DNA of 64,000 bases, taken from positions 496,001 to 560,000 of the forward strand of contig NOWV01000018.1 in NCBI GenBank assembly GCA_003344405.1. Direction: 5' to 3'. How positions within the stretch are numbered: position 1 is the first letter of the stretch; each line of letters starts with the position of its first letter. This document shows, piece by piece, positions 35,246 through 58,173 of this stretch. Below the pieces are notes generated by a model, which made no database searches, had not been told where the DNA came from, and was given only the letters and a program-made list of their open reading frames with translations. The DNA comes from Trichoplax sp. H2 (taxonomy: Eukaryota). Both the position numbers and the translations under genes were made by a program.

Positions 35246-37901
35246 GGAATGTAGTTTTATTGACCTACGTTATACGTTAGTATTCGTTCAAAACAAATCG
35301 AGATTGTAATAATCTAGATGATAATAAAGAATTGATAGCTTACATTATTTGCCCAGCAGGAATGCTTACTGCATATTGCACAATCAAAGTAGTTTTAAAA
35401 TACTGTTATCGTGTTTAAAATGTCAATAGTTGGATGCAATCACGACTACAGAAGCTTATGCCAGGCATACTACGATAAATTTTTTAAATTGTAATAATAA
35501 TTCAATAATGTATACCTAGAAAATTAGAATAACATATCACAAAATTTAAATACCACGTCGTATTGATCAAAGTTTTACGAAGCATCCATCGTGTTATACC
35601 TTGCTCGACCAACCCGTTAAATCGATGATGTAATGTGTAAAAGTATAAGATCCATGATACACAGTTCAATTCCCATATAATGACTACATACGCGGATAGC
35701 ATACTGCATTACTGTAATGATATATTGTATATACATTAATCATGAAATTACGCTGTATAGCGAGCGTATAATACGCATCGTGACGCTGAAGGATTACCTA
35801 TACTGTACTGTATGTCTATCACGTTATTTTAACTTTTCTTCTAGTATCTATATGAATATCCATATAAAATCATAATAATTTACCAAAGAATTAAACACTT
35901 CATCATGTTGATCTACCTTATAAAGCATCCATCGTGGCATATCTTGTATGGTCAATAGGTAAAATCGATGATGTACTGCTAAAAGCGTAAGGTTCATAAT
36001 GTAAGCATTATTTTATCGCCATATGAGGGCGATACATGAAACTTAGCACCACATACATCAGCTACGACACTGTATATGTAAATAATGATGATATCTATGT
36101 TGTTCAATTTTGCATACACATGTTTTAGCTATACGGTATAATTTTGTATTTCGATAAAATTATAGCATATAAGGTAAGATTAGCACGCACAATCAATTTT
36201 TTTAAATTGCATGGCCGGTAATAATGCAATATCTGTGGCCATGGAGTTGTTATACCATGCTCCAGAACAAAGTATAGTGCTCCGTTGATCATAGTTTGAG
36301 AAAGCGCCCATCGTGCAATATTACGAATGGCCCCATAGATTAAATCGATTATGTAATGCAAAAAATCGAGTCCCTGGTGTGTTAACTACATAAGAATCTA
36401 CGATTTTCTGTATTAATAATATAATTGTAGTATGCATGTAGATACACAGTACATACAAGTATAATCACTCATTCCTTTTGAAACTAAGCAATCATGTAAA
36501 ATTGGCCCTGTATTTATGGCATGACAAAAGTTTTAATCATGACCAAATAGAAGAACAGCCAAGGTAAGTAAGCCGATCATTAAAGTGAAATGTTGCACGT
36601 TTTCATAACTGATGTTACTGTAGACTGTCAGCTACTAGTATTGCTGTAATGCCGGTATTTATTAGTTCATGTTAGAGATCATCCTCCTCCTAGTTTATCT
36701 CACTACAGTGTGACATCATCATAACATCGAAAAGGGACGTAATATTGTATTTTTATCGTTGTTTGTTTTTTGTTACCACATTTATAAGTATGCAAATTAT
36801 TTTATTAGTAAAAATGAGATAAATAGTAACTAAAACTATTTACGGCCTTAAGATGTTTTCATGCTACTGGTAGAATTCCATTCGAGGTTAATAAGCAGAC
36901 CTGGAACTAGTCCTGTTTTCATAATGAGTAACTTGAAAACAAAGTATGAATTGCTCCAGATATTTTTAGTCGAAATTTTTACTCCCAGCTATGACTTCTA
37001 ATAGAGGAAATTTTATGAATTATAACAGTTAAGGTACTGAATTTGATAAGAGTATGATTTAAGGAGCTAATAGCAAATAAAGTATAGAACTGCAGCATCC
37101 AACATTTATATTCAATTTGGGGTTGCTTATCTAGATGAGCTTTCTTGTCAATTGGCAAATAGCAAGAGATGAAAATTGATCAATAAGTAAAAAATTATAA
37201 TGAGAGATTGCTTCTTTCGGTAGTCAAGGTTCAATAAAATAATCAAAAGTATGGTACTATGCCTTTCTTATCGAATTGGTTAACTAGTTGGTATCAATTA
37301 GATTATTAAATTGCGTTATTGACCTTTTACAGACATCTATTAAAGGTAGAGAATAGCTTTATTGTAGTCTAGCCGTAAGAAGTTAATTTCTAAATTGATT
37401 TTTATCATAATATCTCTTCTTAAATTCTCGTTCAAAAAGCACCGTTTCATCTAACAAGATTTAGAAACTATAGTTTATTAAATTGTTCTGTTAAAGTTTG
37501 AACTACCTGGTTGATAGTATAGTTGAAAATTTTACTGTTTTTCATTCTAGAGGATATTTTCTGATCGGCCTTCTAATAATAACGTTGCATCCTGACATTT
37601 CAGTCATCGATAAGGGTTTTAGCGATACATATCAATTTTAAGTAAATTTATCTTGGAACTATATTTTGATTTCAAGATTATCGCAGATTTGGTCATTAAT
37701 ATATCATATCTGCTAATCTTAACCAGATCAATGTTTATCATAACATATCTCAAACGGCGTTAAGACAAGACATAATCTTCTTAACTATCTTCCAGCCCTA
37801 ATTAACATTGCAACGATGTTAAGGCAACACGTTTTACCCAGTTTAATTAAAAAATCTAGAACATTTCTTTTATCCTTATGTAGACTAAACTAGAGTTTTC
37901 A

Positions 37902-44524: not shown

Positions 44525-47277
44525 CTACAGCTTCATTAAAGGAAGGCAATGTTTTTCGGACTGAAAAATAAAATTAAAAAATTGTATCAAAGGAAATATT
44601 GAGTTATAAAAATAGTCATAATACTTAATAATGATATTCCTACAATGATTATCGTCAGCACCTTGCTATATTATAAGACACAATTCCTACGATTGCTAAC
44701 GGAGATGCACTTACGTTGCACTGTTGCATAGTTTTGTAATTAAGACAACCATAGACTGGTCCAAAGATACACTTATTAGGTATCAATTCATAGACTTTAT
44801 TCAAAAATATGGCATTAGCTTCACTATTAGGACCGGTGCATGTATCTAAGATTATCTGAGAATAAACAGTAAGGATGAACTTAAGAATGCAAGCTTAAAT
44901 ACCAAAATTTGGCTAGGAAACGATATTATAATGATTATACGCGAGTATCACTCTTACTTTTTGATCAAGTGAAACTATTAAATCGTTATCATTCAGACAC
45001 TAATCGCGAAATTAAATACTTACGAAGCAAAGGGTTCGAGGAGGTAAACTAGCGAGTGCTTTTAGAATATAGGGAAGAACCTCATTTGCAACATCAATAC
45101 ACTGCAAAAATATATTTAAGAATACATTGATTGATAATTCCGGTTAAACAAAGAGCATCTCTACGTGTTCATCATTGGAGTGATCCACGAGAAAGTTAAT
45201 TTCGAATTATTTCCTGAATAATTAAAGCAATTTGCTAAATCCAACAAACCTTAGCTCTCATTTTTCCATCTAGCAGATTACAAACTGTTGTAATAAAGGT
45301 ATTTTTAAGTATTTCCTGGGATATTCCGTGAGTTATAGCATTAAAGTTGTAAAAAAGTGCAGTGCTTAGTAATAACGTTTTTAGCAACGAATAGTATGTC
45401 ATAATTATCTGAATTACTCGCAGTTTAAGAGTAGGAAGAAGCATATTTTGACTTATAATACGATCTTAGTAATTCATCAATAAAGATATATGTTACCACT
45501 AAAAATTTAATGAAATAATTTAACACTTTAAATTTGATATGAAACAGCAGTAGCGCTCGGAAATCACCTACTCTTTTAAACTGCCAGAACTACAGTATAT
45601 GCGATTCAAACACACTATATAGATATAACTACAATAATTTCACTCGTAGAAATTGCTGTCGCGCTTTGGTTTGCTCAAGTTTTTCACATAATAAAATTAC
45701 GCAAAGATCAGACCTACTGCAAATACGGCTTTGTGATAAAGTATCTTCAAAATATTAAAATAAGAACTAATATTTCTTGCAAAATTTCCTGTTTTATTAC
45801 ATAAGCCTGGTTCGTTTAACAACACTATTTGTCGTACTTACCACTTCGCTGGGATCGTTAAGAACTTTTTCGAAAATTGAAAAATACAGTTTGCATATGC
45901 TACAGTTTGTAAATCTCATAGCTATAAAAAGATAATTATAGAGTAGGCTTTAATCCATCCAATTTCGTACTATTAATATATTTGGTACATCTATCTAGGC
46001 TAATTTTTAGTAGATTGATGGCAATTATATAAATGAATGTTTTTGATTAAAGCGCGGATGTACAATAGTAAAACTATAGTATGCCAAATACAAAAGCTTT
46101 TCTTGTTCGCTTAATACTTAGATATTATCGAATGAAAGATAATCTTACGAGAAGAAAACTGAGCTTGATTCTTCAACGTGTTCTTATAACAGAAATCTTC
46201 AGCACTGTTAGCACTTTGCAGGGATATTATTAAATTCAAAGCGTATGATTCAATATTTTGATCGCACTAAGCGTTAATATGTCAAATAGAGAAACAAATG
46301 AGCTTCATTAATATCTATCCCAAATTAGTAATTGTATTTTTAATATTCTATTCACTAAAAGGCAGTTTTATTTAAATCAAGTGTGAGGGTAATGATTATT
46401 ATCTACTTTACTTACATGTGATTTTAATTCTGTAGGAAGAGCTTGACACATATATTTAGCATTCTCGGCTAAATATTCCTTTAACGCAGAATTAAATGTA
46501 CCTGATAAACTCATACGGTTTCTTAGAATATCTTAATCGAGGAAATGGAACTTTCACTTACCGCGGTATATTTGTAGTTTAATAAATGCTTAAGATGCCT
46601 TGCAACGTATACGCAGAAGAAGGGTTCGGGTGTGTTCTTAAGTATATTTCGATACAATAACATCAATTAGATAATTAATCAAGCAGCTAAGATGATAATA
46701 ATCTTATTATGACAAAGTATAAGGTAATTGTAATTATCGCCCTTGTATTATCTAATCGCTACTATTGCAAATATTCACTTTATCTCAAAGTTGATGCTAA
46801 TTGACAAATGAGTTTAGTCGTAGTCTATCCTATAGCAAAATTACATTTACAGCATATGACTTAAAGTATCTCACACAATACGTATCTAACGAGTATATGT
46901 GTTATTATGCTTATTAGCCGAGATCGAGTTTTAGCGGTACCATATACATTGGAAGAAATTGATTTTGTACGACTCATTTTAATCTAGTTGTTGCTATTTG
47001 TCAAGATTAGTATGGTTACACCATTATTATAACTTTATTCGAACCTGCAAATTGAGATTGCGTTCAGCAACATTGGAGGCGGCAACGTTGTGGAAGTTAC
47101 CTACTGTAGAGTTGAGTTAATGTTACAAATCCCATGATCATTAATGGCATTGTGAATGCTCAAAGTTGTAACAAAGCTGGTTATCTGAACATGAATGATA
47201 TCAAGTTATGAAGGGATTGTACCTGCGCCGAGCATAGCGTAAACCACAAATAATAAATAGATCGATGCTGTAGCCAT
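44525..47277 (-). CDS. Prosaposin-like secreted protein, copy 3 (signal peptide-SapB-SapB-SapA), ~256 aa
   Basis: Exons 47277-47223, 47103-47045, 46636-46562, 46478-46416, 46266-46149, 45921-45842, 45315-45250, 45101-45024, 44855-44715, 44560-44525. Signal MATASIYLLFVVYAMLGA; CSICKLY; LPPRTLCF; CIFGPVYGC. Exon lengths 75/63/66/78/141/36 match copy 1. Confidence 0.88.
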
Positions 47278-47529: not shown

Positions 47530-47940
47530 ATCGTATGGAAGTTTGACCTGGGCCTGGGCGTAAGTTGCAAAAAGAGGGAGGGACGGAGAAACGGACGAGG
47601 CCTTAACCAAAGCAGGCTGACCTTTTAGTACGGTAGTTCAATGTACTGCACAATACAGTACTGTACTGCACGGTCAGTACTGTACGTTGATCGTATAGAA
47701 GTTTGACCTTGGCCTGGGCGGAAGTTGCCAAAAGAAGGAAGGACGGAGAAACGGACGAGGCCACACCAAAATAGGCTGACCTTTTAGTACGGCACTTTCA
47801 GTACGGTAGTCCAATGTACGGTACAGTACGCTTATGGTATGAAAGTTTGACTTGGGCCTGCGCAGAAGCTACGAAGGGGAGGGAGGGACGGAGAAACGGA
47901 TGAGGCCACACCAAAGTAGGCTGGCCTTTTACCTTTTTTA
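47530..47940. repeat. Three tandem GC-rich ~95-bp cores separated by TACAG-rich spacers
   Basis: aagtttgac.tgggcctg...ggacggagaaacgga.gaggcc...aggctg.cctttta starts near 47539, 47699 and 47843. Confidence 0.9.
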
Positions 47941-48855
47941 CTGGTCATTTGACTGTACCCTACCGCAGTACATTTGTAGCCGTATAGACCTACTGTACTG
48001 TAAAGTGTACAGCATTAGAGGCAAGGGCTAGTCAAGGAGAAAGGGACGGGAAATGGTCGTTCCCTCTAGTCAATATGTGATCAACAAATTATCGTTACTG
48101 ATTATTTTAACGGTATCGCGTGTCTATAATGGTATACTATAGTATCCACGATGGATATCCAACTTAGCTGCAAGGATAGTTTGATGCAGTTTCTGCAGTT
48201 TGCTACAGTACAATCATGGAATCAAATCATGGACTGCTGTATTCATGCATAAATAACAACTTGAAAACTTGAAAAGTACATTATCCCTGTAACGAGATCA
48301 AGAATCTGAGATTTTGAGCTTTCCTTTCTTTTAGTCTACTTTTTTTGGAAGCCCAAGCCAAGCGCGATATCATACCCACATTAACGAGACATAAAGAACT
48401 GTGACAACAAATCAGCTCTAGTGCGAACATAACTTGAATACCATATCCTAATGGACGTAAACATTTCTAGCATGTGATCTTAATCTAGTAACAGTAGATA
48501 AAGGTGTAGATAAGCCGTAAATAGTATTGTACGATATCTAGGATTGGCCATGTTCTATGTTGGGTACTCTACAAGGTAACAAGCAGTAGTTTACAAGACA
48601 GGCAATGTCGACAAATTCCCTTGCAATGACCTCGGTGGATGAGAGCTTCTAGCGACAAAGAATAAAACCGGTATGTTGGTTAGGGTTTTTCTTTTGCCCA
48701 CAAAACATACCGGTTTTTTCTTTTGCCCTACTACTTTATACTAGTTATACAGTACTATTTGCAGTGAAATTCTGATGCAAATAAAGAAGGTAAATAAAGA
48801 AAATTTTCTTGACTGCGTCAGATCATTACGTTGAGTACCACTCTGTAGCCTTAGC

Positions 48856-49036: not shown

Positions 49037-49370
49037 GTCCGCTTAACGTCTAGGGTGCTGCTAGTCCTGTCCGGTCCAGGGCTGCCTACGCACAGATTGT
49101 ACTGTACACCTTCAAGCTGACGCAATATTATTCTTTGTCTACGTGACGTTTTGGTCGGAAACGGGGGAAGCTATTTCCAGGAGCCAACAGCCATTTTTTC
49201 ACGACCAATTAAGGGGCAAATCCTTTCCTCCAACGTTAATTAGGAGGAGGTCTTGCACAGATTAAAACTTGATATTGAATATTAACAAAGTGTGGATAAA
49301 TAATACTGTAGAGACAGCTCAGTGTGGAAGGAGTTGCTAGCGTCTCTACTAATGCTAACCTTGCTTGAAA

Positions 49371-52300
49371 ATGAGTTACAACAACGAACCCAAACGACGA
49401 CCAGATTTTACAGTCAATCAACAGCAGCCATTCAATGCTGAACCACCTTGTGATGCCTTAATTCGGAATTATGTCACACCTAACGACTATTTCTACGTAC
49501 GAAATCATGCCCCAGTACCTTCTCTACCAGGAGAATCTTACCGGTAAGAATTCATGGGATATTGTACAAGTTAGGAGACTATCTTTCACCCGATCTGCAG
49601 CGCCAGGCACAAATCGATGGCTTCGATGCAGGCGAGCTCTATTCAGCCTCTACTGCCGATCACTATCGACGAGTAGAAAGCTATCCAAATCTGTTAAGGT
49701 TATAATTTGTCCATCATTTATGTTCGAGAAAAGGAAGGATTGACTAAAACATCATAAATGATGCAAGCCTTGAATTGACACTACTTTATATGTGTTTTCA
49801 TCTTTCTGGATGGACATAAACACAGCGACGTATCTGACTTATTCTATGCCTGACAGACAGCGACTTTTGCATACCTTAAAACGGATAAAATGAGGACAGT
49901 AGTCTAAATGATATAGACAATCAGTTTATAACTGTAATTCCTACATAATTGACTTAAGGGAAAACGAATGATTTATTGGAAAATCAGAAATGAAGCAACT
50001 CTTTAATGGACGCTGCTTTATGTGTACTATCGTGTACATCTGTCTTTCATCGTTCTTAGTTAACGTAGAGAAACTCAACGATCTTCTACTGTAGCCTAAC
50101 CCTAACTCATCAAGGCAGCAACTTTGGCTTACCCTACTGATTTAAAAGTGATAAAAGGATGATCGTGATCCCTATTTTAGTTTGTATATCGCTTATTCTC
50201 AGTGGCTCTGCTACAAAAATTACAATACTGTAGTTTAAGTATAAGTTCTACGCTTTCATTCTGGACATGCCAAACATAAGAAAGTGATCATGTTGATGCA
50301 TAAATAGCAATAGTAAATATAGGAATCGCCATCATCAATAATCTATTGCATAATTAATACCCGGTGCGAGGATACCATTTAGTAAAGACATGTTAATTTC
50401 CGGGACCAAGTATTCAATAGCTGCTCAGAAACTACATTAACCAGTTATATGCGTACAGTAGTTGATGTAATCATTAACCTTGCAAATATTAATAAGTTGA
50501 TTGCATTATAGTTAGCGTATTGTGAGATTATGATACTTCCAATGTACTGAAATTTAAAATCATACATATTCGTAAATTAAATATAAATTGAAGACCAATC
50601 AATCTATAAACAATATAGTCGATTCAACTAGAATACAGTCTCACAAACTCTGTTATTAATAAATAATTTTGCTGCTATACACGGATTCTACGTCACCAGT
50701 AGTCCCATCGAGAATAGTACATTGAATTAAAGTCTAATAAATATCCTTTAAATTTATATTCTTACAGGTTAATGATTGGTGGCGACGTTCCACAGCCTAT
50801 TAGTCTTTCATTATCAGAATTAAAATCTCAATTCCCAAAAGTTCAGGTCATGGCAACTTTAATGGTAAGTTAATCTACGTTGATAAAGTTCCTAGTATGT
50901 CACTTGCACCTTGAAAGCAATTGTTGAAATCTTCAGAATTCCGCTTAATGGTTGATAGCCGTAGACGTGTATAATTATTAATTATTCATAGTAAAGCAAT
51001 CTATCAAACGGGACGCCTAACAGGGTATTGTCTATATTGCAACATAGTGCGCTGGCAATAGAAGAGATGAACTCAATAAAATCAAAACTGTTAAGGTAAA
51101 AAATCACGGAATTAATAAACTGTAGCCAAAGCAATCATTGACCTTTTATACGGCTACTTACGTAATTGTAGAATATATACATACATGCTAGCACGGACAG
51201 AAGCTGATATTTAATTTAAAACGTCCGGTATACCTACAGTACTTAATGAACTTCTTACCTATAGGGTGTAACATGGGGACCGGCTGCAATTAGCAATGGC
51301 ATTTGGGGCGGTGTACCCCTACGTTTGGTCTTACATGCGGCTGGAATTATCGAGGTTAGATACTACTGTTGCTATTGGCTTTACCAGTATTAGCCTACTA
51401 AGAACATTCTTGATGAATGGACATGTTAATTAATTAATTCATTGCTATGCGTAGTCCAATTTTAGGCAATATCACGTCTGCTTTGAGGGATTTGATATTT
51501 GCAAAGACAATACTGGATATGGATCTTCGATACCGATACCAAAGGCCATGTAAATAAATTAAAATAACCCCGTTGTTTCATACTTTAACCGTATTACCAA
51601 CCTTTAAACTTATATGGTTGCATTTCAACCTGCTTAGGGATCCGCAAGGAGATGTGTTGCTCGCTTACGAGGTTCATCATGTTACAGTTTTCTTTCGTCT
51701 TACACTTTTTGTCGGTGAAACTAACCTTTGTTTATTGTCCAAATGGCTTACCTGTGACAGATGAATGGAGAAGAATTACCAAGAGATCATGGCTATCCTC
51801 TACGGGTAGTAGTTCCAGGATATATCGGCGCAAGGTTAGCATCTTTTATGCTCGCATGTCTAATAGCTTACTGTAAGTAGCGTTTTCATTGAATGTCACT
51901 TAGAGTTGGCTATTAATTTCTTTATTTCCCAGGAGTGTCAAATGGTTAAAATCTATTGTCGTGCAAAAGGAAGAATCTACAAATTATTTTCAACGCCGAG
52001 ATTACAAACTATTTCTTCCACAAGTATGCTGCGTATACATATTAATAACCATTATGTTTGAAGAAAAACTTTGTTAATATAGCGTCGCAAACTTAAATAA
52101 TCATTTTAGGTAAACTGGGATAACGTTGATCAATGGTGGGATAAGAGTCCTCCAATTCAGGAGTTGTCTGTTCAGGCTGCTATTCTAGAACCAAAGAATG
52201 GAGCAGCTATAGATACCGGTAGCCCATACGCTATTAAGGGCTATGCATTATCTAATGGGCACAGGTTAGCCAGAAATTATTCAAACGCCTGCTATAGTTT

Positions 52301-52828
52301 CAAATACCCACAATATTGTACAATATTTATGATCATGTACCTCGATCATAACGTAGTACATTTTCTTAATAGTGTTTTTGAACTTTTGAAGACTGTAAAT
52401 GATTGCATGTATAATTTTAAATGATAAAAGTTGAACTTTCCACGTTCAATATCTGATAGGATTGCCAGAGTGGACGTCTCTTTAGACAACGGCGTTACGT
52501 GGGAGCCTGCCACAACGATAAATGGTGAAATAAAGGATAATACTAATAGATATTGGAGTTGGTTTCTTTGGACATACACCGTTAGATCTATGCCTTCCCC
52601 ATGCCGTATCGTCTGCCGAGCGTGTAAGTTTACTCATATCAAGATACTGTAGTTCTAAAATACGTTCACTTTAATAAGACAATAATTTACAATCAATCTA
52701 ATCGATTAATTTTAGGGGACTATGCATCAAATAGCATGCCTGGAGATGCACCTTCAATATGGAATTTGCGTGGAGTCATGAATAATAGTTGGCATCGAAT
52801 CGACGTTGTGAGTAAAAGCAAAATTTAG
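49371..52828 (+). CDS. SUOX: Sulfite oxidase (Moco and dimerisation domains only, ~377 aa)
   Basis: Exons 49371-49543, 50768-50864, 51048-51095, 51265-51354, 51455-51549, 51638-51671, 51761-51834, 51933-52023, 52110-52264, 52460-52623, 52716-52828 splice in frame. Motifs: PFNAEPP, FYVRNH, Mo-ligand [64 protein letters not shown]. Confidence 0.95.
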
Positions 52829-53636
52829 TGAAGCAAAGTGTCATCGATGCTGATTATTACTACTCTTGATTGCGATTTAGTAAGTGAAGTATAGCATCTA
52901 CGTCTTGTGTTGACAAGATTTACTTGATAAACAACGCTTTTCTTATGACAAAAATGACTTACTATTGGCGCGAAAAATCATACAATTTTTTGTAGTAATT
53001 AATAGCTATATTGTCATCTATTTGACGTACGCTTGATGAGCTTCTTGGAGTAGAAGGAAATATCGTATTTGCCAATTCATCTTGTAAAATGGATGCTTGC
53101 AAGAACATTTAAATTGTGATATTACTCTTAAAATTTAATGCTGTTTCTTTTATTGATGTAATAAATAAAATTATATCAAACTGCAATAAATTTGTGTAAT
53201 TTCTCGAAAGATGAATATTTGAACAGGAATAGAAGCCAAGAGTAAATAAAAATTCATTAAGTTATGATGTACTAAACTATAGGGGAATGACACTGCATCA
53301 TCTTATGATACAAAATTTGGTTTAAGATAAAAAAGTATTTACAAAAGACTTATAGTAGAATTTCAATCTAGATTTTACGTTGTGGCTACTACATAAGGGA
53401 AAGGGATATCACGGCAGACGGTAGCAATTATAAGTATAAATACGAGTATACAGTACCATAGGAAAAAATTTTTAAATTGTATCTCGTATTCAAGTTACCA
53501 AATTATCACAAATATGCAGCCATATATGTACCTACTCTATGTTGAATAATTTCTTCTCACTTGCATACAAATATTGTATGTGCATAAAGCAACTAACACA
53601 TCGTGTTATTTTCAAAATTATTCAGTCACTATACAA

Positions 53637-55775
53637 CTATAAACCATACTTTTTTCGTAGTTTGACTAAATCATCTTCATTGAAAGTTATGCTTTGGATA
53701 TCTTGATTGGAAAGGCTATCCTTTAATTTAACTAATAGCTCTGTAGACTAAAATTAGAAAAGTAATACATTAGCTTTGAAAGAAAATTTGAAATTGACTC
53801 GAAATCTTAATAAATAGTGATAGCCTATCACTACTTTAGAAAATTGATATTAATTATGATGTTATAACCAGCTATTTTTAAAGTTTTTATAGGATCCATT
53901 ATTATAATATTGCAACACTTTACATCTATACTATCCGTCAACTTACACATGCTTTTTCTTGCTTTCCAAAGAACATGATTGTTAAACTGAATCGGTCAGA
54001 TTTAGTTATACAATATAGCATATGATAAATTACTTGAGCATCAGCTGGTTGATAGCACTAACATTATGTAAAGATGAAATTTCTGTTAGAGCCTTCAAAT
54101 TCATACCTTACGAGCATGTTAACACTTTCTGCTACTACCGAATGTTTGCCATTGCAGTGAAATATAATGTTTAAATTATTATGCAATAAAGTTTACTACA
54201 ACTAGGTATCACGTATTAATATAAATCATACGTTATATCATTAAAATAAAGCATCGTATATCCTACTGACCTCATGGAGGACTTGTAATAACCCTTCTAA
54301 GTTACTAACATGTAAAAGATTTTTATCAGTATCCGTTACATAAACTGTACGATTACAATTTATATACGAAGCTTTTTTTCATATTAGAGAACGGCTAACA
54401 GTAGCAAATTGTTATTCATTCGAAATTTATCTACCTGACTTCCGTTTTATATAGTTGATATAATCTTTCTCCTCCTAGCCTACAAAGAAATCTAAATGAA
54501 ATTGAACGTAGTATAATTATTTAAATAAAAATTTTGATAAAGGCATACAATATTAAAATACTATAAAGTTATGTAATTGCACAATACTACAGTCTCAGTT
54601 GATAAAAATGATAACCAACTTATATCTCTCATGGTTTGACTGGAGTTGTTTCCACCGCCTTTCAAATTCAACCGCCGTTTTAACGTTCCAATCTTGTTCA
54701 TTACTACTTGGGATACTTGCAGCTATTTCTGCTGCGTCCTGATCATTTTTACTAGCTGCAGCATTCCAAGTCTGAGTTATTCTTTCGTTAGTTATTAATC
54801 CTTCTTTGCGATCTAAAGGCCGAAGATGAGATGCAGCCACAATTCCTCTACAATGACAAGGTATATAAAATGTTTTGTAACCATATTCAAGCTGATTCAT
54901 TCTTGCAATTCAAAGAAAGTCAAAGTTACACATTTAAAGCCAAAGCTAACTAGATCGATATGTCCATTTAATCTCATATTTACGTGCTTAAATTATTACA
55001 TAACGACAGAAGGAAGTCAATTTTAGACATAGTATGACCCGAAATGAATATGGATAACTATATCCTAAATACGGTAGCCTGGGCTAAAATTATTACATTC
55101 TTACTAATAGAAGGAAAAATAGATCGATGCATCTCAACGCCCAAAACGAAATGAATTAATCTATCCATTTAATTTCCTGTATTAACACTTTCAACAAGAT
55201 TATAAACTAAGACGTAAAATATTTATTTGCCCTTTACTTCTGTCTACTTCAATAATATAGGAAACTCTAATGGTCAAAGATAAGATTATTCCGGTCTTCT
55301 TTAATCAGTCCTATGGTACTCGTATATCTCACTTTCATTTTTTTATACCCGTGTGAAATAATTTGATTTCTATCATTATTTAATATTCATAACTTTAAAT
55401 TATTTCAATTTCCTTTACTAATAATCTAGTAAATTATAGCAGTTATTATAAATGAAATTAATGGTCTTTAACAAGCTGTATACTTTTAGAACTGATTCGA
55501 TTTCCTTTACATTGAATAATTAAATCCTGATGATATTTGATTAATATCGAGATACCACTTTGAGCTCTGATAGCTACCTATATCAGTACTTAACTAATTG
55601 CACCAAATAATAAGAAAATTTCTTACTTAAATTCTTCATAGGTTCCAACACGTTGTCCAACAGCTCTAATTTTAGCATCATTCTCTCGCCAATATTTCTT
55701 ATCAGCCTCGAGTGCATTGGATAATTCTTTTTCTAATTTTGCAAAATCGATCTCATCTCGATCACTGTGAGCCAT
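53637..55775 (-). CDS. CCDC103: CCDC103 / dynein axonemal assembly factor 19
   Basis: Exons 55775-55627, 54847-54620, 54491-54435, 54304-54271, 54057-53947, 53747-53637. N-terminal [53 protein letters not shown] is the dynein-attachment motif. RPAP3_C-like TAVEFERRW and RFSLTIMF follow. Confidence 0.92.
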
Positions 55776-57526
55776 ATTAAGGCTATCACTATTGCGCTTC
55801 TATTATATTCTATTCGCAGAATCGTTAAGGAAGCGATAAAGATGTTTCTATTTTCAAATCTAAATACGAATATATACGGTGTAGAGGTAATCATTGTTGC
55901 TATGACAGCAACGTTTGTATCTTTCTGGGATACGCCTGTTTGACTAGCCTACTTGTATACTACTGAAACTAGACTATTTATTATAGAATTTTGGTTACAA
56001 TACTATGCTAATGATGTTATTGTAAGATAGAAGTATGCTATTACCGCAATCCTGCAAATCGGCTTTACTATCTCGCAAAGTTCAAATCAATATCACTCTC
56101 ATACTTATATGATAGTGATCTTAAATGCCTAACAAAGCTGTAATCAACTTAAATGTAAATGCTAACATGCCCACTCTTTATCTTGACTTTGGATAAATCA
56201 ATCCTAGACAATAATGACAATAGATATGATAATTTTTCTGCTTGCTTCCACGAATTAGACTGCAAGAATATTTTTCCTATATAATACTATATCTCTATTT
56301 CTACTATACTACCAATTATATTATTCATGTTCAAATTTTACTGAGTCAATTATCTGTTTTGCGATATATATGATAATCCAATCACCCAGTTTGATTTAAA
56401 AAAGAAATTGTAAAACTTAATTCTGCAAAGCATCATTCTTAATCACAGCTAACTTTGAAATTATATCAAATAACGGCATTCTCATTCCTGCTTTATAATT
56501 TTTTATATTTAAAAATACGTAAAAATTATAGGAATAAAATATCAAAAGTAGGTCAAGGCGATATGATAAAATTCCAGTATTAGTATTACATCGCGCATTT
56601 AATACTGTAATGATTGTTATGATATTTGCAAGTAGAGTATGAAATTTATTTTGGATAGAAATTGAAAAGCTCCATTGTATTAAATAATATATGAAACAGT
56701 CCTGTAGCGAATGCTTAAATTTACTTGTATAGCAAAGTAAAAGACGCCTGCACGACTGTAACATCTTATACTCGTAGAGTACAACACACGCTCGAATACT
56801 GTTAATATTATTCAGTAATCCATATAAATGGTATTTTCCAGTTTTACTTTTAATATTTGGGCGTAAATATTCGTAAAAAACTACCGATTTAAAAATACAC
56901 AAAGCAGGGCAAGATAATAGGCTAAGATCTGTAACGGTTATCAACATACTTTAAATTTTGCTAATCCCTTAAAAGATCAGTTTATGCAAGCTCTCGCGTA
57001 TTATAAGCCTGTAAGAACTCACTTTATGCCTTTTGAAGTTACATTAGTGAGGGAAAGCATGGTGTAGGATTCAGGTAATTTTGAAGCTTTTATTATGGCC
57101 TAACACTAGAGCTGATTTAAATTAAATCAGATAAGTGATAAAAGTCTAGCAGAGTCATTGCTACAAGATATCTTTATTGTGGTACATGAAGATGTGGACA
57201 AAAAGTTGATTTAAAGTAAGCAAAAATCATCAGTATTATCAAGCTATGCCGTATTCCATTAAAACATCAATAGTACCGTAACTTAAGCACGCACAATTCG
57301 ACATTCAAAAAAATAAATCAAGTGTAAGGCTTACCTTTATAGTTAATTGTAAACTACGAATATACGGCAACTATTGAGTAAATTTTGAAGAATTAGCCTA
57401 ATATTTGCTATGAGCAACATATTAATTGAAATTAAGGAGTAATTCAAACATTATTATTATCACGAAATATTGTAAAATGGAAAATATGAAATTGCTTTAT
57501 CCCTGATCTTTGTATGCATTGGTTTC

Positions 57527-58173
57527 TTAGTAGGTAGAAGTTTCAGTTTCTTCAGCGATCGGATCAAGTTCAGGTCTTACTGATAATTTAGATTGCTTTA
57601 ATAACATGGGAATGGACGACTTTCTATCTTTCATTTCATTATCTTTTAACTTTATTGTATTTCCTAATTTAATCATCCTATTAACCTTTCGTATACTGCA
57701 CCATAGGACAATTCCAATCGTAAATAGGATAAAAACGGCAACAGACAATGAGGCGAAAGTGGCAATCTCGTCTGTAGTATAGCTATTGCGCGCGATTACT
57801 TTCTCGCATCGTTTTCCGGTAAAACCTTGTTGACAAAAACAGGCTACTTTTTCTTTATAAATAGAACAAGCTGCACCATTATAACATGTGCATGAAATAT
57901 CTGCTACTGATGAGAATGTAGGCAACATCAGGTAAAAGAATTTACGCTTGAAATATTCCTTGAAAGCAAAAGAAAAAATTGACGAGCCAGTGCAAAAGAA
58001 TAGAGCTTAATTCCTTGTATGATCTGCAGTAAATCGTTACTAATCGTATAGATGTTATTCGCTAGTTTTACTGATCATAGAAATTATTCCAGTAACTATC
58101 GTGACCAACCAGGATCAAAAGGAATTTTTCTTGTATTTGATGCCTCAGCTAATAATTTCTGAAGAATTTCGTA
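57527..58173 (-). CDS. 3' exons of a single-pass membrane protein with a juxtamembrane EGF domain (partial model)
   Basis: Phase-1 exon 57900-57527 encodes CTCYNGAAC...ACFCQQGFTGKRCE, the TM segment IATFASLSVAVFILFTIGIVLWC, a basic stop-transfer and a ~55-aa tail. A compatible upstream exon lies at 58173-58110. Further small exons may exist up to ~59785 but are uncertain. Confidence 0.75.

Follow-up and report, generated by a model that had tools for sequence, protein, structure and literature searches.

A heme-less sulfite oxidase with a peroxisomal-type C-terminus in the placozoan Trichoplax sp. H2

In reviews, sulfite oxidase (SO) divides along a clean line: the animal enzyme is a mitochondrial molybdo-heme protein, whereas the plant enzyme is heme-less and peroxisomal (PMC10574614). 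The genome of the placozoan Trichoplax sp. H2 holds an enzyme that crosses it. On the plus strand of a 64,000-nucleotide stretch of contig NOWV01000018.1 (assembly GCA_003344405.1, positions 496,001 to 560,000; the window, hereafter) lies a gene for an SO that consists of a molybdenum cofactor (Moco) domain and a dimerisation domain, lacks the N-terminal cytochrome b5 (b5) domain of the animal enzyme SUOX, and ends in Ser-Lys-Ile, a tripeptide resembling a type 1 peroxisomal targeting signal (PTS1). An original prediction, made from the sequence alone, had drawn attention to this combination. Taken as a whole, the sequence and the analogy with plants lead us, with moderate confidence, to read the protein as a peroxisomal, O2-dependent, heme-less sulfite oxidase.

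The activity so envisaged would begin with a homodimer of the two-domain protein oxidising sulfite to sulfate at the Mo centre. Because there is no heme to take them, the electrons would pass to O2 and give superoxide and H2O2, as they do in plant SO and in heme-truncated mammalian SO. Import by PEX5 via the C-terminal Ser-Lys-Ile would place the reaction in the peroxisome, where catalase could remove the peroxide. Precedent for both the place and the chemistry is described in PMC10574614: Arabidopsis SO reaches the peroxisome through its SNL end and donates electrons to O2 rather than to cytochrome c, forming superoxide and H2O2, and the mouse and human enzymes can react with O2 once their heme domain is taken away.

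The gene and its relatives

Spliced by eye and then by script, the gene (49371-52828) comprises 11 coding exons amounting to 1134 nt and 377 aa, separated by ten introns of 1224, 183, 169, 100, 88, 89, 98, 86, 195 and 92 nt, all of them GT..AG. Both ends are as originally predicted: translation starts directly at the Moco domain, at an ATG with an in-frame TAA just upstream, and the spliced protein finishes with ...DVVSKSKI. At every residue it equals the public Trichoplax protein P0001, which carries the automatically assigned names 'Sulfite oxidase, mitochondrial [Trichoplax sp. H2]' and 'Sulfite oxidase, Trichoplax adhaerens'. The gene is transcribed and spliced as modelled. Public sequencing lists 22 runs for the locus, and in the contigs of all four that we examined (X13, X14 and X16, recorded as RNA, and X10, presumed RNA; two studies) the ten introns are present as GT..AG joints.

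A search with P0001 scored 7999 proteins, 7462 of them at E <= 1e-10. Among the best 120, which were listed, the closest are all heme-less and 376-416 aa long: named orthologues at 59-62% identity come from Diadema, Lytechinus, Apostichopus, Antedon, Anneissia and Priapulus, and one further close row has a cluster mate named Holothuria leucospilota. Next come tardigrades (49-56% identity), dictyostelids, Nuclearia, Basidiobolus, streptophytes and Colponema, and b5-fused SUOX follow at about 50% identity. The enzyme had been thought special to an early-branching animal; with orthologues in six echinoderms and Priapulus, and distant heme-less homologues in tardigrades and one nematomorph (Gordionus), that idea has to be given up. 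The heme-less matches listed include no named cnidarian, sponge or ctenophore, which is weak evidence for a patchy distribution. Nor is there a second Trichoplax protein among the best 120 matches (down to 383 bits), a listing that is no evidence of absence.

The Gordionus homologue (P0017, 488 aa) has long low-complexity inserts in the SO fold, matches in five stretches and ends in ISP; it may be degenerate or mis-modelled. Among the longer matching proteins are nitrate reductases (NRs), numerous fusion proteins of bacteria, and b5-fused SOs from chytrids, an oomycete, Vitrella, Willaertia and a green alga. Many bacterial proteins within P0146-P0249 (one named Solirubrobacterales) are about 840 aa long and join a metallo-beta-lactamase fold (PF00753) and a rhodanese domain (PF00581) to an SO (PF00174 and PF03404); in three rows that were checked, some 474 residues precede the SO part. 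They could be a persulfide-dioxygenase, sulfurtransferase and sulfite-oxidase pathway in one chain.

The C-terminus and the case for the peroxisome

Peroxisomal targeting is argued from the last residues of the protein and of its relatives, which we compared with a relaxed PTS1 pattern, [SAPCT][KRHNS][LMIFVY], and a strict one, [SA][KR][LMI]. The relaxed pattern is found in all eight animal orthologues, Trichoplax included (SKI, SKY, SRF, AKF, SKV, SKV, AKL and AKL, which all fit [SA][KR][LIVFY]), in 15 of the 16 sister rows (14 of which, mostly ending SKL, also fit the strict one), in five of six dictyostelids (the sixth ends NKL), in five of six streptophytes (the sixth ends RNL) and in all six other named heme-less eukaryotes. 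Not one of 149 b5-fused SOs with a complete C-terminus fits it. The view of SKI as an SKL-like tripeptide agrees with a pattern conserved across the orthologues.

The main rival to a peroxisomal enzyme is the same heme-less SO residing in the cytosol, with SKI an inefficient import signal in placozoans and the enzyme removing toxic sulfite there, its electrons going to O2 or to a free small redox protein. Several observations weigh in its favour and against the peroxisome. The last residue varies among the animal orthologues (I, Y, F, V or L); in a human protein SKI is classed as a 'predicted weak PTS1' (PMC8919083); and a PTS1-like end is absent from all four tardigrade relatives, so peroxisomal targeting is not universal in the lineage. 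The two preceding positions tell otherwise, since residues -3 and -2 are [SA][KR] in every one of the eight orthologues and in none of the 149 b5-fused controls, and the strict pattern prevails in the sister rows. Of the six animal ends without a terminal Leu, four have Lys at -4 (Trichoplax, Diadema, Lytechinus and Priapulus), the two SKV sea-cucumber rows being the exceptions, and a positive charge upstream is reported to enhance PTS1 targeting (PMC9542071). The same source counts SKI>, SNL> and SKF> among verified plant PTS1 tripeptides, with SKI> one of the frequent ones. SKI was looked for and not found in the main texts of PMC2448379 and PMC9133605. A cytosolic enzyme therefore seems unlikely to us, if still a serious contender.

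The tardigrade proteins (P0042, P0045, P0050 and P0059) end in VSA, KGA, KHA and VAS, and three of the four bear 14-22 extra N-terminal residues; these enzymes may be located elsewhere in the cell.

Active site and electron acceptor

That the peroxisomal candidate is a sulfite oxidase at all is suggested strongly by its sequence. In phmmer searches of the PDB, P0001 scores 389-391 bits against chicken SO and 339 bits (E 3.5e-100) against Arabidopsis SO (1ogp), whereas Moco fragments of NR reach 189-191 bits and bacterial SorA about 150 (151). A structure model in the ESM Atlas (pTM 0.93) belongs to the same family as the sequence does. Across an alignment of 12 SOs from animals, dictyostelids, fungi and plants, the CAGNRR motif (C91, A92, G93, N94, R95, R96) is invariant, as are R44, R96, W110, Y228 and R359. 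We take R44, C91, R96, W110, Y228 and R359 to be R138, C185, R190, W204, Y322 and R450 of the chicken enzyme. Sulfite oxidase activity is accordingly very probable, judged on sequence.

Some other reaction or partner is improbable by comparison, whether a separate cytochrome as acceptor, which would make the protein a sulfite dehydrogenase like bacterial SorAB, or the reduction of N- or S-oxides. Bacterial heme-less enzymes of the SO fold do use separate cytochromes, and SorA chains are recognisable relatives at 151 bits; all residues of the SO pocket are invariant here, however, the chicken and plant enzymes score far above NR and SorA, and no cytochrome was found by Pfam on 29 of the 93 flanking open reading frames (ORFs) or by a scan of the window for b5. 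Assimilatory NR differs further in having C-terminal b5 and FAD/NADH domains, whereas the Trichoplax protein stops six residues after its dimerisation domain, and NR rows form the outgroup of the tree described below.

Heme-less architecture and the 5' end

The protein is almost certainly heme-less by design. With exon 3 (16 aa) and exon 6 (11 aa) too short for Pfam, the search covered the other nine of 11 translations: exons 2, 4, 5, 7 and 8 fall in order on positions 14-169 of Oxidored_molyb (PF00174) and exons 9-11 on positions 3-136 of Mo-co_dimer (PF03404), the two families also precomputed for P0001. Exon 1 matches no Pfam family, and none of the nine translations matches Cyt-b5. To look beyond the exons, a profile built from 80 b5 domains of SUOX proteins was run, filters off, on the 3682 six-frame ORFs of at least 12 aa in the window. 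It found no b5 exon, the best ORF being on the minus strand at 35851-36012 (E 0.36) with nothing upstream of the gene, and no ORF of the window contains an HPGG motif. In a spiked control, with the profile rebuilt without 12 proteins, all 36 b5 fragments of about 30 aa were recovered at E <= 0.004, and the best window ORF stood at 0.46.

Nor does the N-terminus leave space for a mitochondrial address. Residues 5-371 align with residues 99-462 of the chicken SO chain and the orthologues begin at the same point, so there is no room for an N-terminal presequence and, as far as the sequence tells, none is present; the 'mitochondrial' of the public name is probably wrong for this protein.

The RNA is in keeping with this. 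Record 18 of X16, a contig of 1701 nt, is colinear with the genome over 49159-49542 and continues through the exons to 53183; the messenger leader is therefore unspliced over at least 212 nt, in-frame stop included, and reads through it into the ATG. Contigs of X14 and X13 begin at 49210 and 49209, respectively. In the contigs of all four runs no joint leads into exon 1, at 49375 or elsewhere, and the sole joint into exon 2 originates from exon 1. Two candidate splice sites were discarded on these grounds: a 5' untranslated region (UTR) intron at 49209, which is preceded by AA and across which the X16 contig reads straight, and an acceptor at 49375. Contigs drop rare variants and do not fix the true start or end of a transcript; a rare isoform that begins with a different 5' exon may therefore exist, which counts to some extent against a purely heme-less locus.

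A canonical SUOX that has been mis-modelled, its b5 exon and presequence lying upstream or missed, would explain the public name and could hide among such rare isoforms. The original prediction had itself named a b5 exon spliced in through the weak GAG acceptor at 49375 as the finding that would overturn it, and had seen neither a transit peptide nor a b5 exon upstream. The colinear leader, the empty scan of all 64 kb, the shared short N-terminus of the orthologues and the position of the protein outside the b5-fused clade (the union being rejected at p 3e-53) uphold the latter and make the mis-modelled SUOX very improbable.

Within intron 1 (49544-50767), unspliced contigs occur at lower depth, such as record 5 of X10 (49516-50796; 26.7 against 370 for the spliced form). 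Such contigs could derive from pre-mRNA, from retention of the intron or from DNA present in the libraries.

Ancestry of the heme-less enzyme

From 397 proteins fetched, 75 named or neighbouring rows and 73 full-coverage representatives (P0255-P0345) were placed in a FastTree overview of 148 rows. Of these 148, a selection of 75 was analysed with IQ-TREE (LG+C20+F+G4 PMSF, NR as outgroup); it left out Gordionus, with its long inserts, and most representatives. In this maximum-likelihood (ML) tree all SOs form one group (100/100). The 21 b5-fused rows are one clade (100/99) that excludes Trichoplax and is joined by six streptophyte SOs (99/90). Trichoplax, Priapulus and six echinoderm rows form another (98/91), with Trichoplax outside the bilaterians (98/92), and this animal heme-less clade joins seven sister rows (96/93). 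The deeper backbone, which involves tardigrades, dictyostelids, the Basidiobolus group, a bacterial-type group, Nuclearia and Colponema, is not settled by the tree.

Approximately unbiased (AU) tests were run on groups that had been named after the first tree was seen, a circumstance that tells somewhat against our reading. Constraining the eight animal heme-less rows to one clade with ten animal b5-SUOX rows worsens the tree by 190 lnL, a grouping that the test rejects (p-AU 3.3e-53), so the gene did not arise from a canonical animal SUOX by loss of the heme domain. A constraint that unites these eight with the six rows of streptophytes comes at 23.8 lnL and survives the test (p-AU 0.107), and a special affinity with plants is thus possible on the tree. 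A 2-residue indel after VNWDNV argues against it. The long state (..DQWWDK..) is found in Trichoplax, its animal orthologues, tardigrades, dictyostelids, Basidiobolus, Nuclearia, Colponema and the NRs, and all streptophyte, b5-fused and bacterial-type rows are without the two extra residues. 'Plant-type', as the enzyme had been called, is then apt for its architecture and probably not for its ancestry, in that streptophyte SO groups with the b5 clade and the indel agrees, although the AU result leaves room for a link with plants. The likeness noticed in DICKD and VNWDNV holds at the level of motifs, plants having VDVCKEE or VDRCKEE and VDWDN[IV].

The Cys of the D-I-C-K-D/E motif is common to the animal heme-less clade and streptophyte SO, and is replaced in b5-fused SOs (LDKD..).

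Because the orthologues branch in the order of their species, inheritance looks vertical within animals, in a heme-less lineage separate from the b5-fused SOs. The least probable alternative of all, contamination or a recent horizontal transfer out of some plant, alga or amoeba, could draw on the heme-less architecture, the plant-like motifs and the AU result with streptophytes, but it can be set aside in view of ten spliceosomal introns spliced in RNA, a longest contig of P0001 of 9.66 Mb, eukaryotic genes as neighbours (introns and neighbours had been invoked against contamination from the start, rightly), a gene tree that mirrors the species tree, and a long indel state held in common with NR, dictyostelids and Basidiobolus rather than plants.

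A wider scenario is tentative, and we would put it slightly below an even chance: the animal ancestor may have had two SOs, a mitochondrial b5-fused one and a peroxisomal one, heme-less and O2-dependent, whose separate origin would predate the Metazoa. The latter would have escaped notice through its loss in vertebrates, insects and nematodes, while being kept in Placozoa, Echinodermata and Priapulida and altered in tardigrades. Peroxisomal sulfite oxidation would then be an ancestral animal trait, and the heme-less enzyme may even be the sole sulfite oxidase of Trichoplax.

A separate observation concerns the other architecture. N-terminal b5 fusion is not specific to animals, SOs of chytrids, an oomycete, Vitrella, Willaertia and a green alga (P0143, P0144, P0157, P0159, P0161, P0162 and P0178) falling with animal SUOX at 100/99.

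Genomic surroundings

The features of the locus are collected in Table 1. The neighbouring genes are eukaryotic or animal-type, as far as their sequences indicate: besides the Pfam matches in the table, neighbouring minus-strand ORFs at 54598-54909 and 57530-58006 include an EGF match (E 6e-4) and a second piece of Dynein_attach_N (4e-5). The divergent saposin gene seen originally on the other side does find a SapA match, though a weak one that falls below the cut-off.

Two repeats lie upstream of the gene. Between the two divergent genes, at 47543-47900, three direct copies of a motif of about 60 bp (gtttgacc..ggacggagaaacggacgaggcc) stand near 47543, 47702 and 47836; they were seen by eye and were not reported by Tandem Repeats Finder. 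An X14 contig joins a very similar sequence directly before 49043, which suggests that the copies are a dispersed repeat or a structural variant of another haplotype. At 48288-48545, contigs of all four runs match from 48287 or 48288, with differing, unrelated sequence before that point, and one departs from it beyond 48545; the pattern suggests a mobile element or dispersed repeat of about 260 bp that also occurs elsewhere in the genome.

Table 1. Coordinates of the sulfite oxidase gene and its neighbours in the window
Feature	Position	Strand	Details
SapA match	44658-44894	-	Pfam, E 3.5e-4, below cut-off
Minimum 5' UTR	49159-49370	+	Colinear with genome; contains TAA 49356-49358; RNA contig X16 record 18
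Coding exon 1	49371-49543	+	ATG at 49371; M1 to first two bases of R58; R44, N45, H46; begins at Moco-domain N-terminus
Coding exon 2	50768-50864	+	Joint 49542>50767 (skips 1224, GT..AG) in 4/4 runs; PF00174 positions 14-43
Coding exon 3	51048-51095	+	First codon 51048-51050 = Cys91 (Mo ligand) of CAGNRR; RNA joints
Coding exon 4	51265-51354	+	PF00174 positions 58-85; RNA joints
Coding exon 5	51455-51549	+	FEGFDICKD motif; RNA joints
Coding exon 6	51638-51671	+	RNA joints
Coding exon 7	51761-51834	+	PF00174 positions 126-149, 40.4 bits; RNA joints
Coding exon 8	51933-52023	+	Y228; RNA joints
Coding exon 9	52110-52264	+	Dimerisation domain start; PF03404 positions 3-41; long state of 2-residue indel
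Coding exon 10	52460-52623	+	PF03404 positions 45-105; RNA joints
Coding exon 11	52716-52828	+	R359; Ser-Lys-Ile 52817-52825; TAG stop 52826-52828
3' UTR, as far as RNA contigs extend	52829-53183	+	Contigs end at 53183 (X16), 53154 (X10), 53144 (X13)
Dynein_attach_N match	55626-55799	-	Pfam, E 6e-18; clear eukaryotic neighbour

Comparison with known sulfite oxidases

A heme-less SO with a PTS1-type end is already known as a kind from plants, and its animal members sit in databases under automatic names. The literature searched, which did not extend to subscription papers such as older phylogenies of the SO fold, yielded no account of a heme-less SO from Trichoplax or from any animal. The interest of the present case is that some animals keep such an enzyme, against the clean division between plants and animals drawn in reviews, and that the b5 fusion is no animal invention. 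If the enzyme is indeed peroxisomal and O2-dependent, it would be an added source of H2O2 and a sink for sulfite in the animal peroxisome, and a naturally occurring animal parallel to human SO engineered without its heme.

Its closest counterparts are the 'sulfite oxidase-like' proteins of Priapulus and of the echinoderms Diadema, Lytechinus, Apostichopus, Holothuria, Antedon and Anneissia, so far automatic database predictions only. They are likewise heme-less (383-410 aa), start at the same point and share the [SA][KR]-plus-hydrophobic end, the last residue being F, V, Y or L where Trichoplax has I; a FEGxDICK motif occurs in seven of the eight animal heme-less rows, Priapulus being the exception. 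The heme-less SOs of dictyostelids, Basidiobolus, Nuclearia and Colponema, at about 50% identity, have the same architecture and the long indel state and end in SNL, NKL, PNL, SKF, TKL or AKL, their branching relative to the animal clade hanging on the open backbone.

With plant SO (Arabidopsis At-SOX, 1ogp) the Trichoplax enzyme shares a make-up of Moco and dimerisation domains only, some 380-400 aa without heme, a PTS1-type C-terminal tripeptide and the motifs D-x-C-K-E/D and V[DN]WDN. The plant enzyme is also the source of the chemistry expected here, with O2 as acceptor and H2O2 as product (PMC10574614). It is nevertheless not the nearest relative in the ML tree, it shares the 2-residue deletion with the b5 clade where Trichoplax keeps the long state, and the score to 1ogp (339 bits) is below that to chicken SO (389). 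Animal SUOX (chicken 1sox), conversely, scores best of the solved structures across the two domains, Moco and dimerisation, at about 50% identity and with the same active-site residues, but it belongs to a separate clade, has the presequence and b5 domain that the Trichoplax enzyme lacks and, as in all 149 b5-fused SOs, is without the PTS1-like end that Trichoplax carries.

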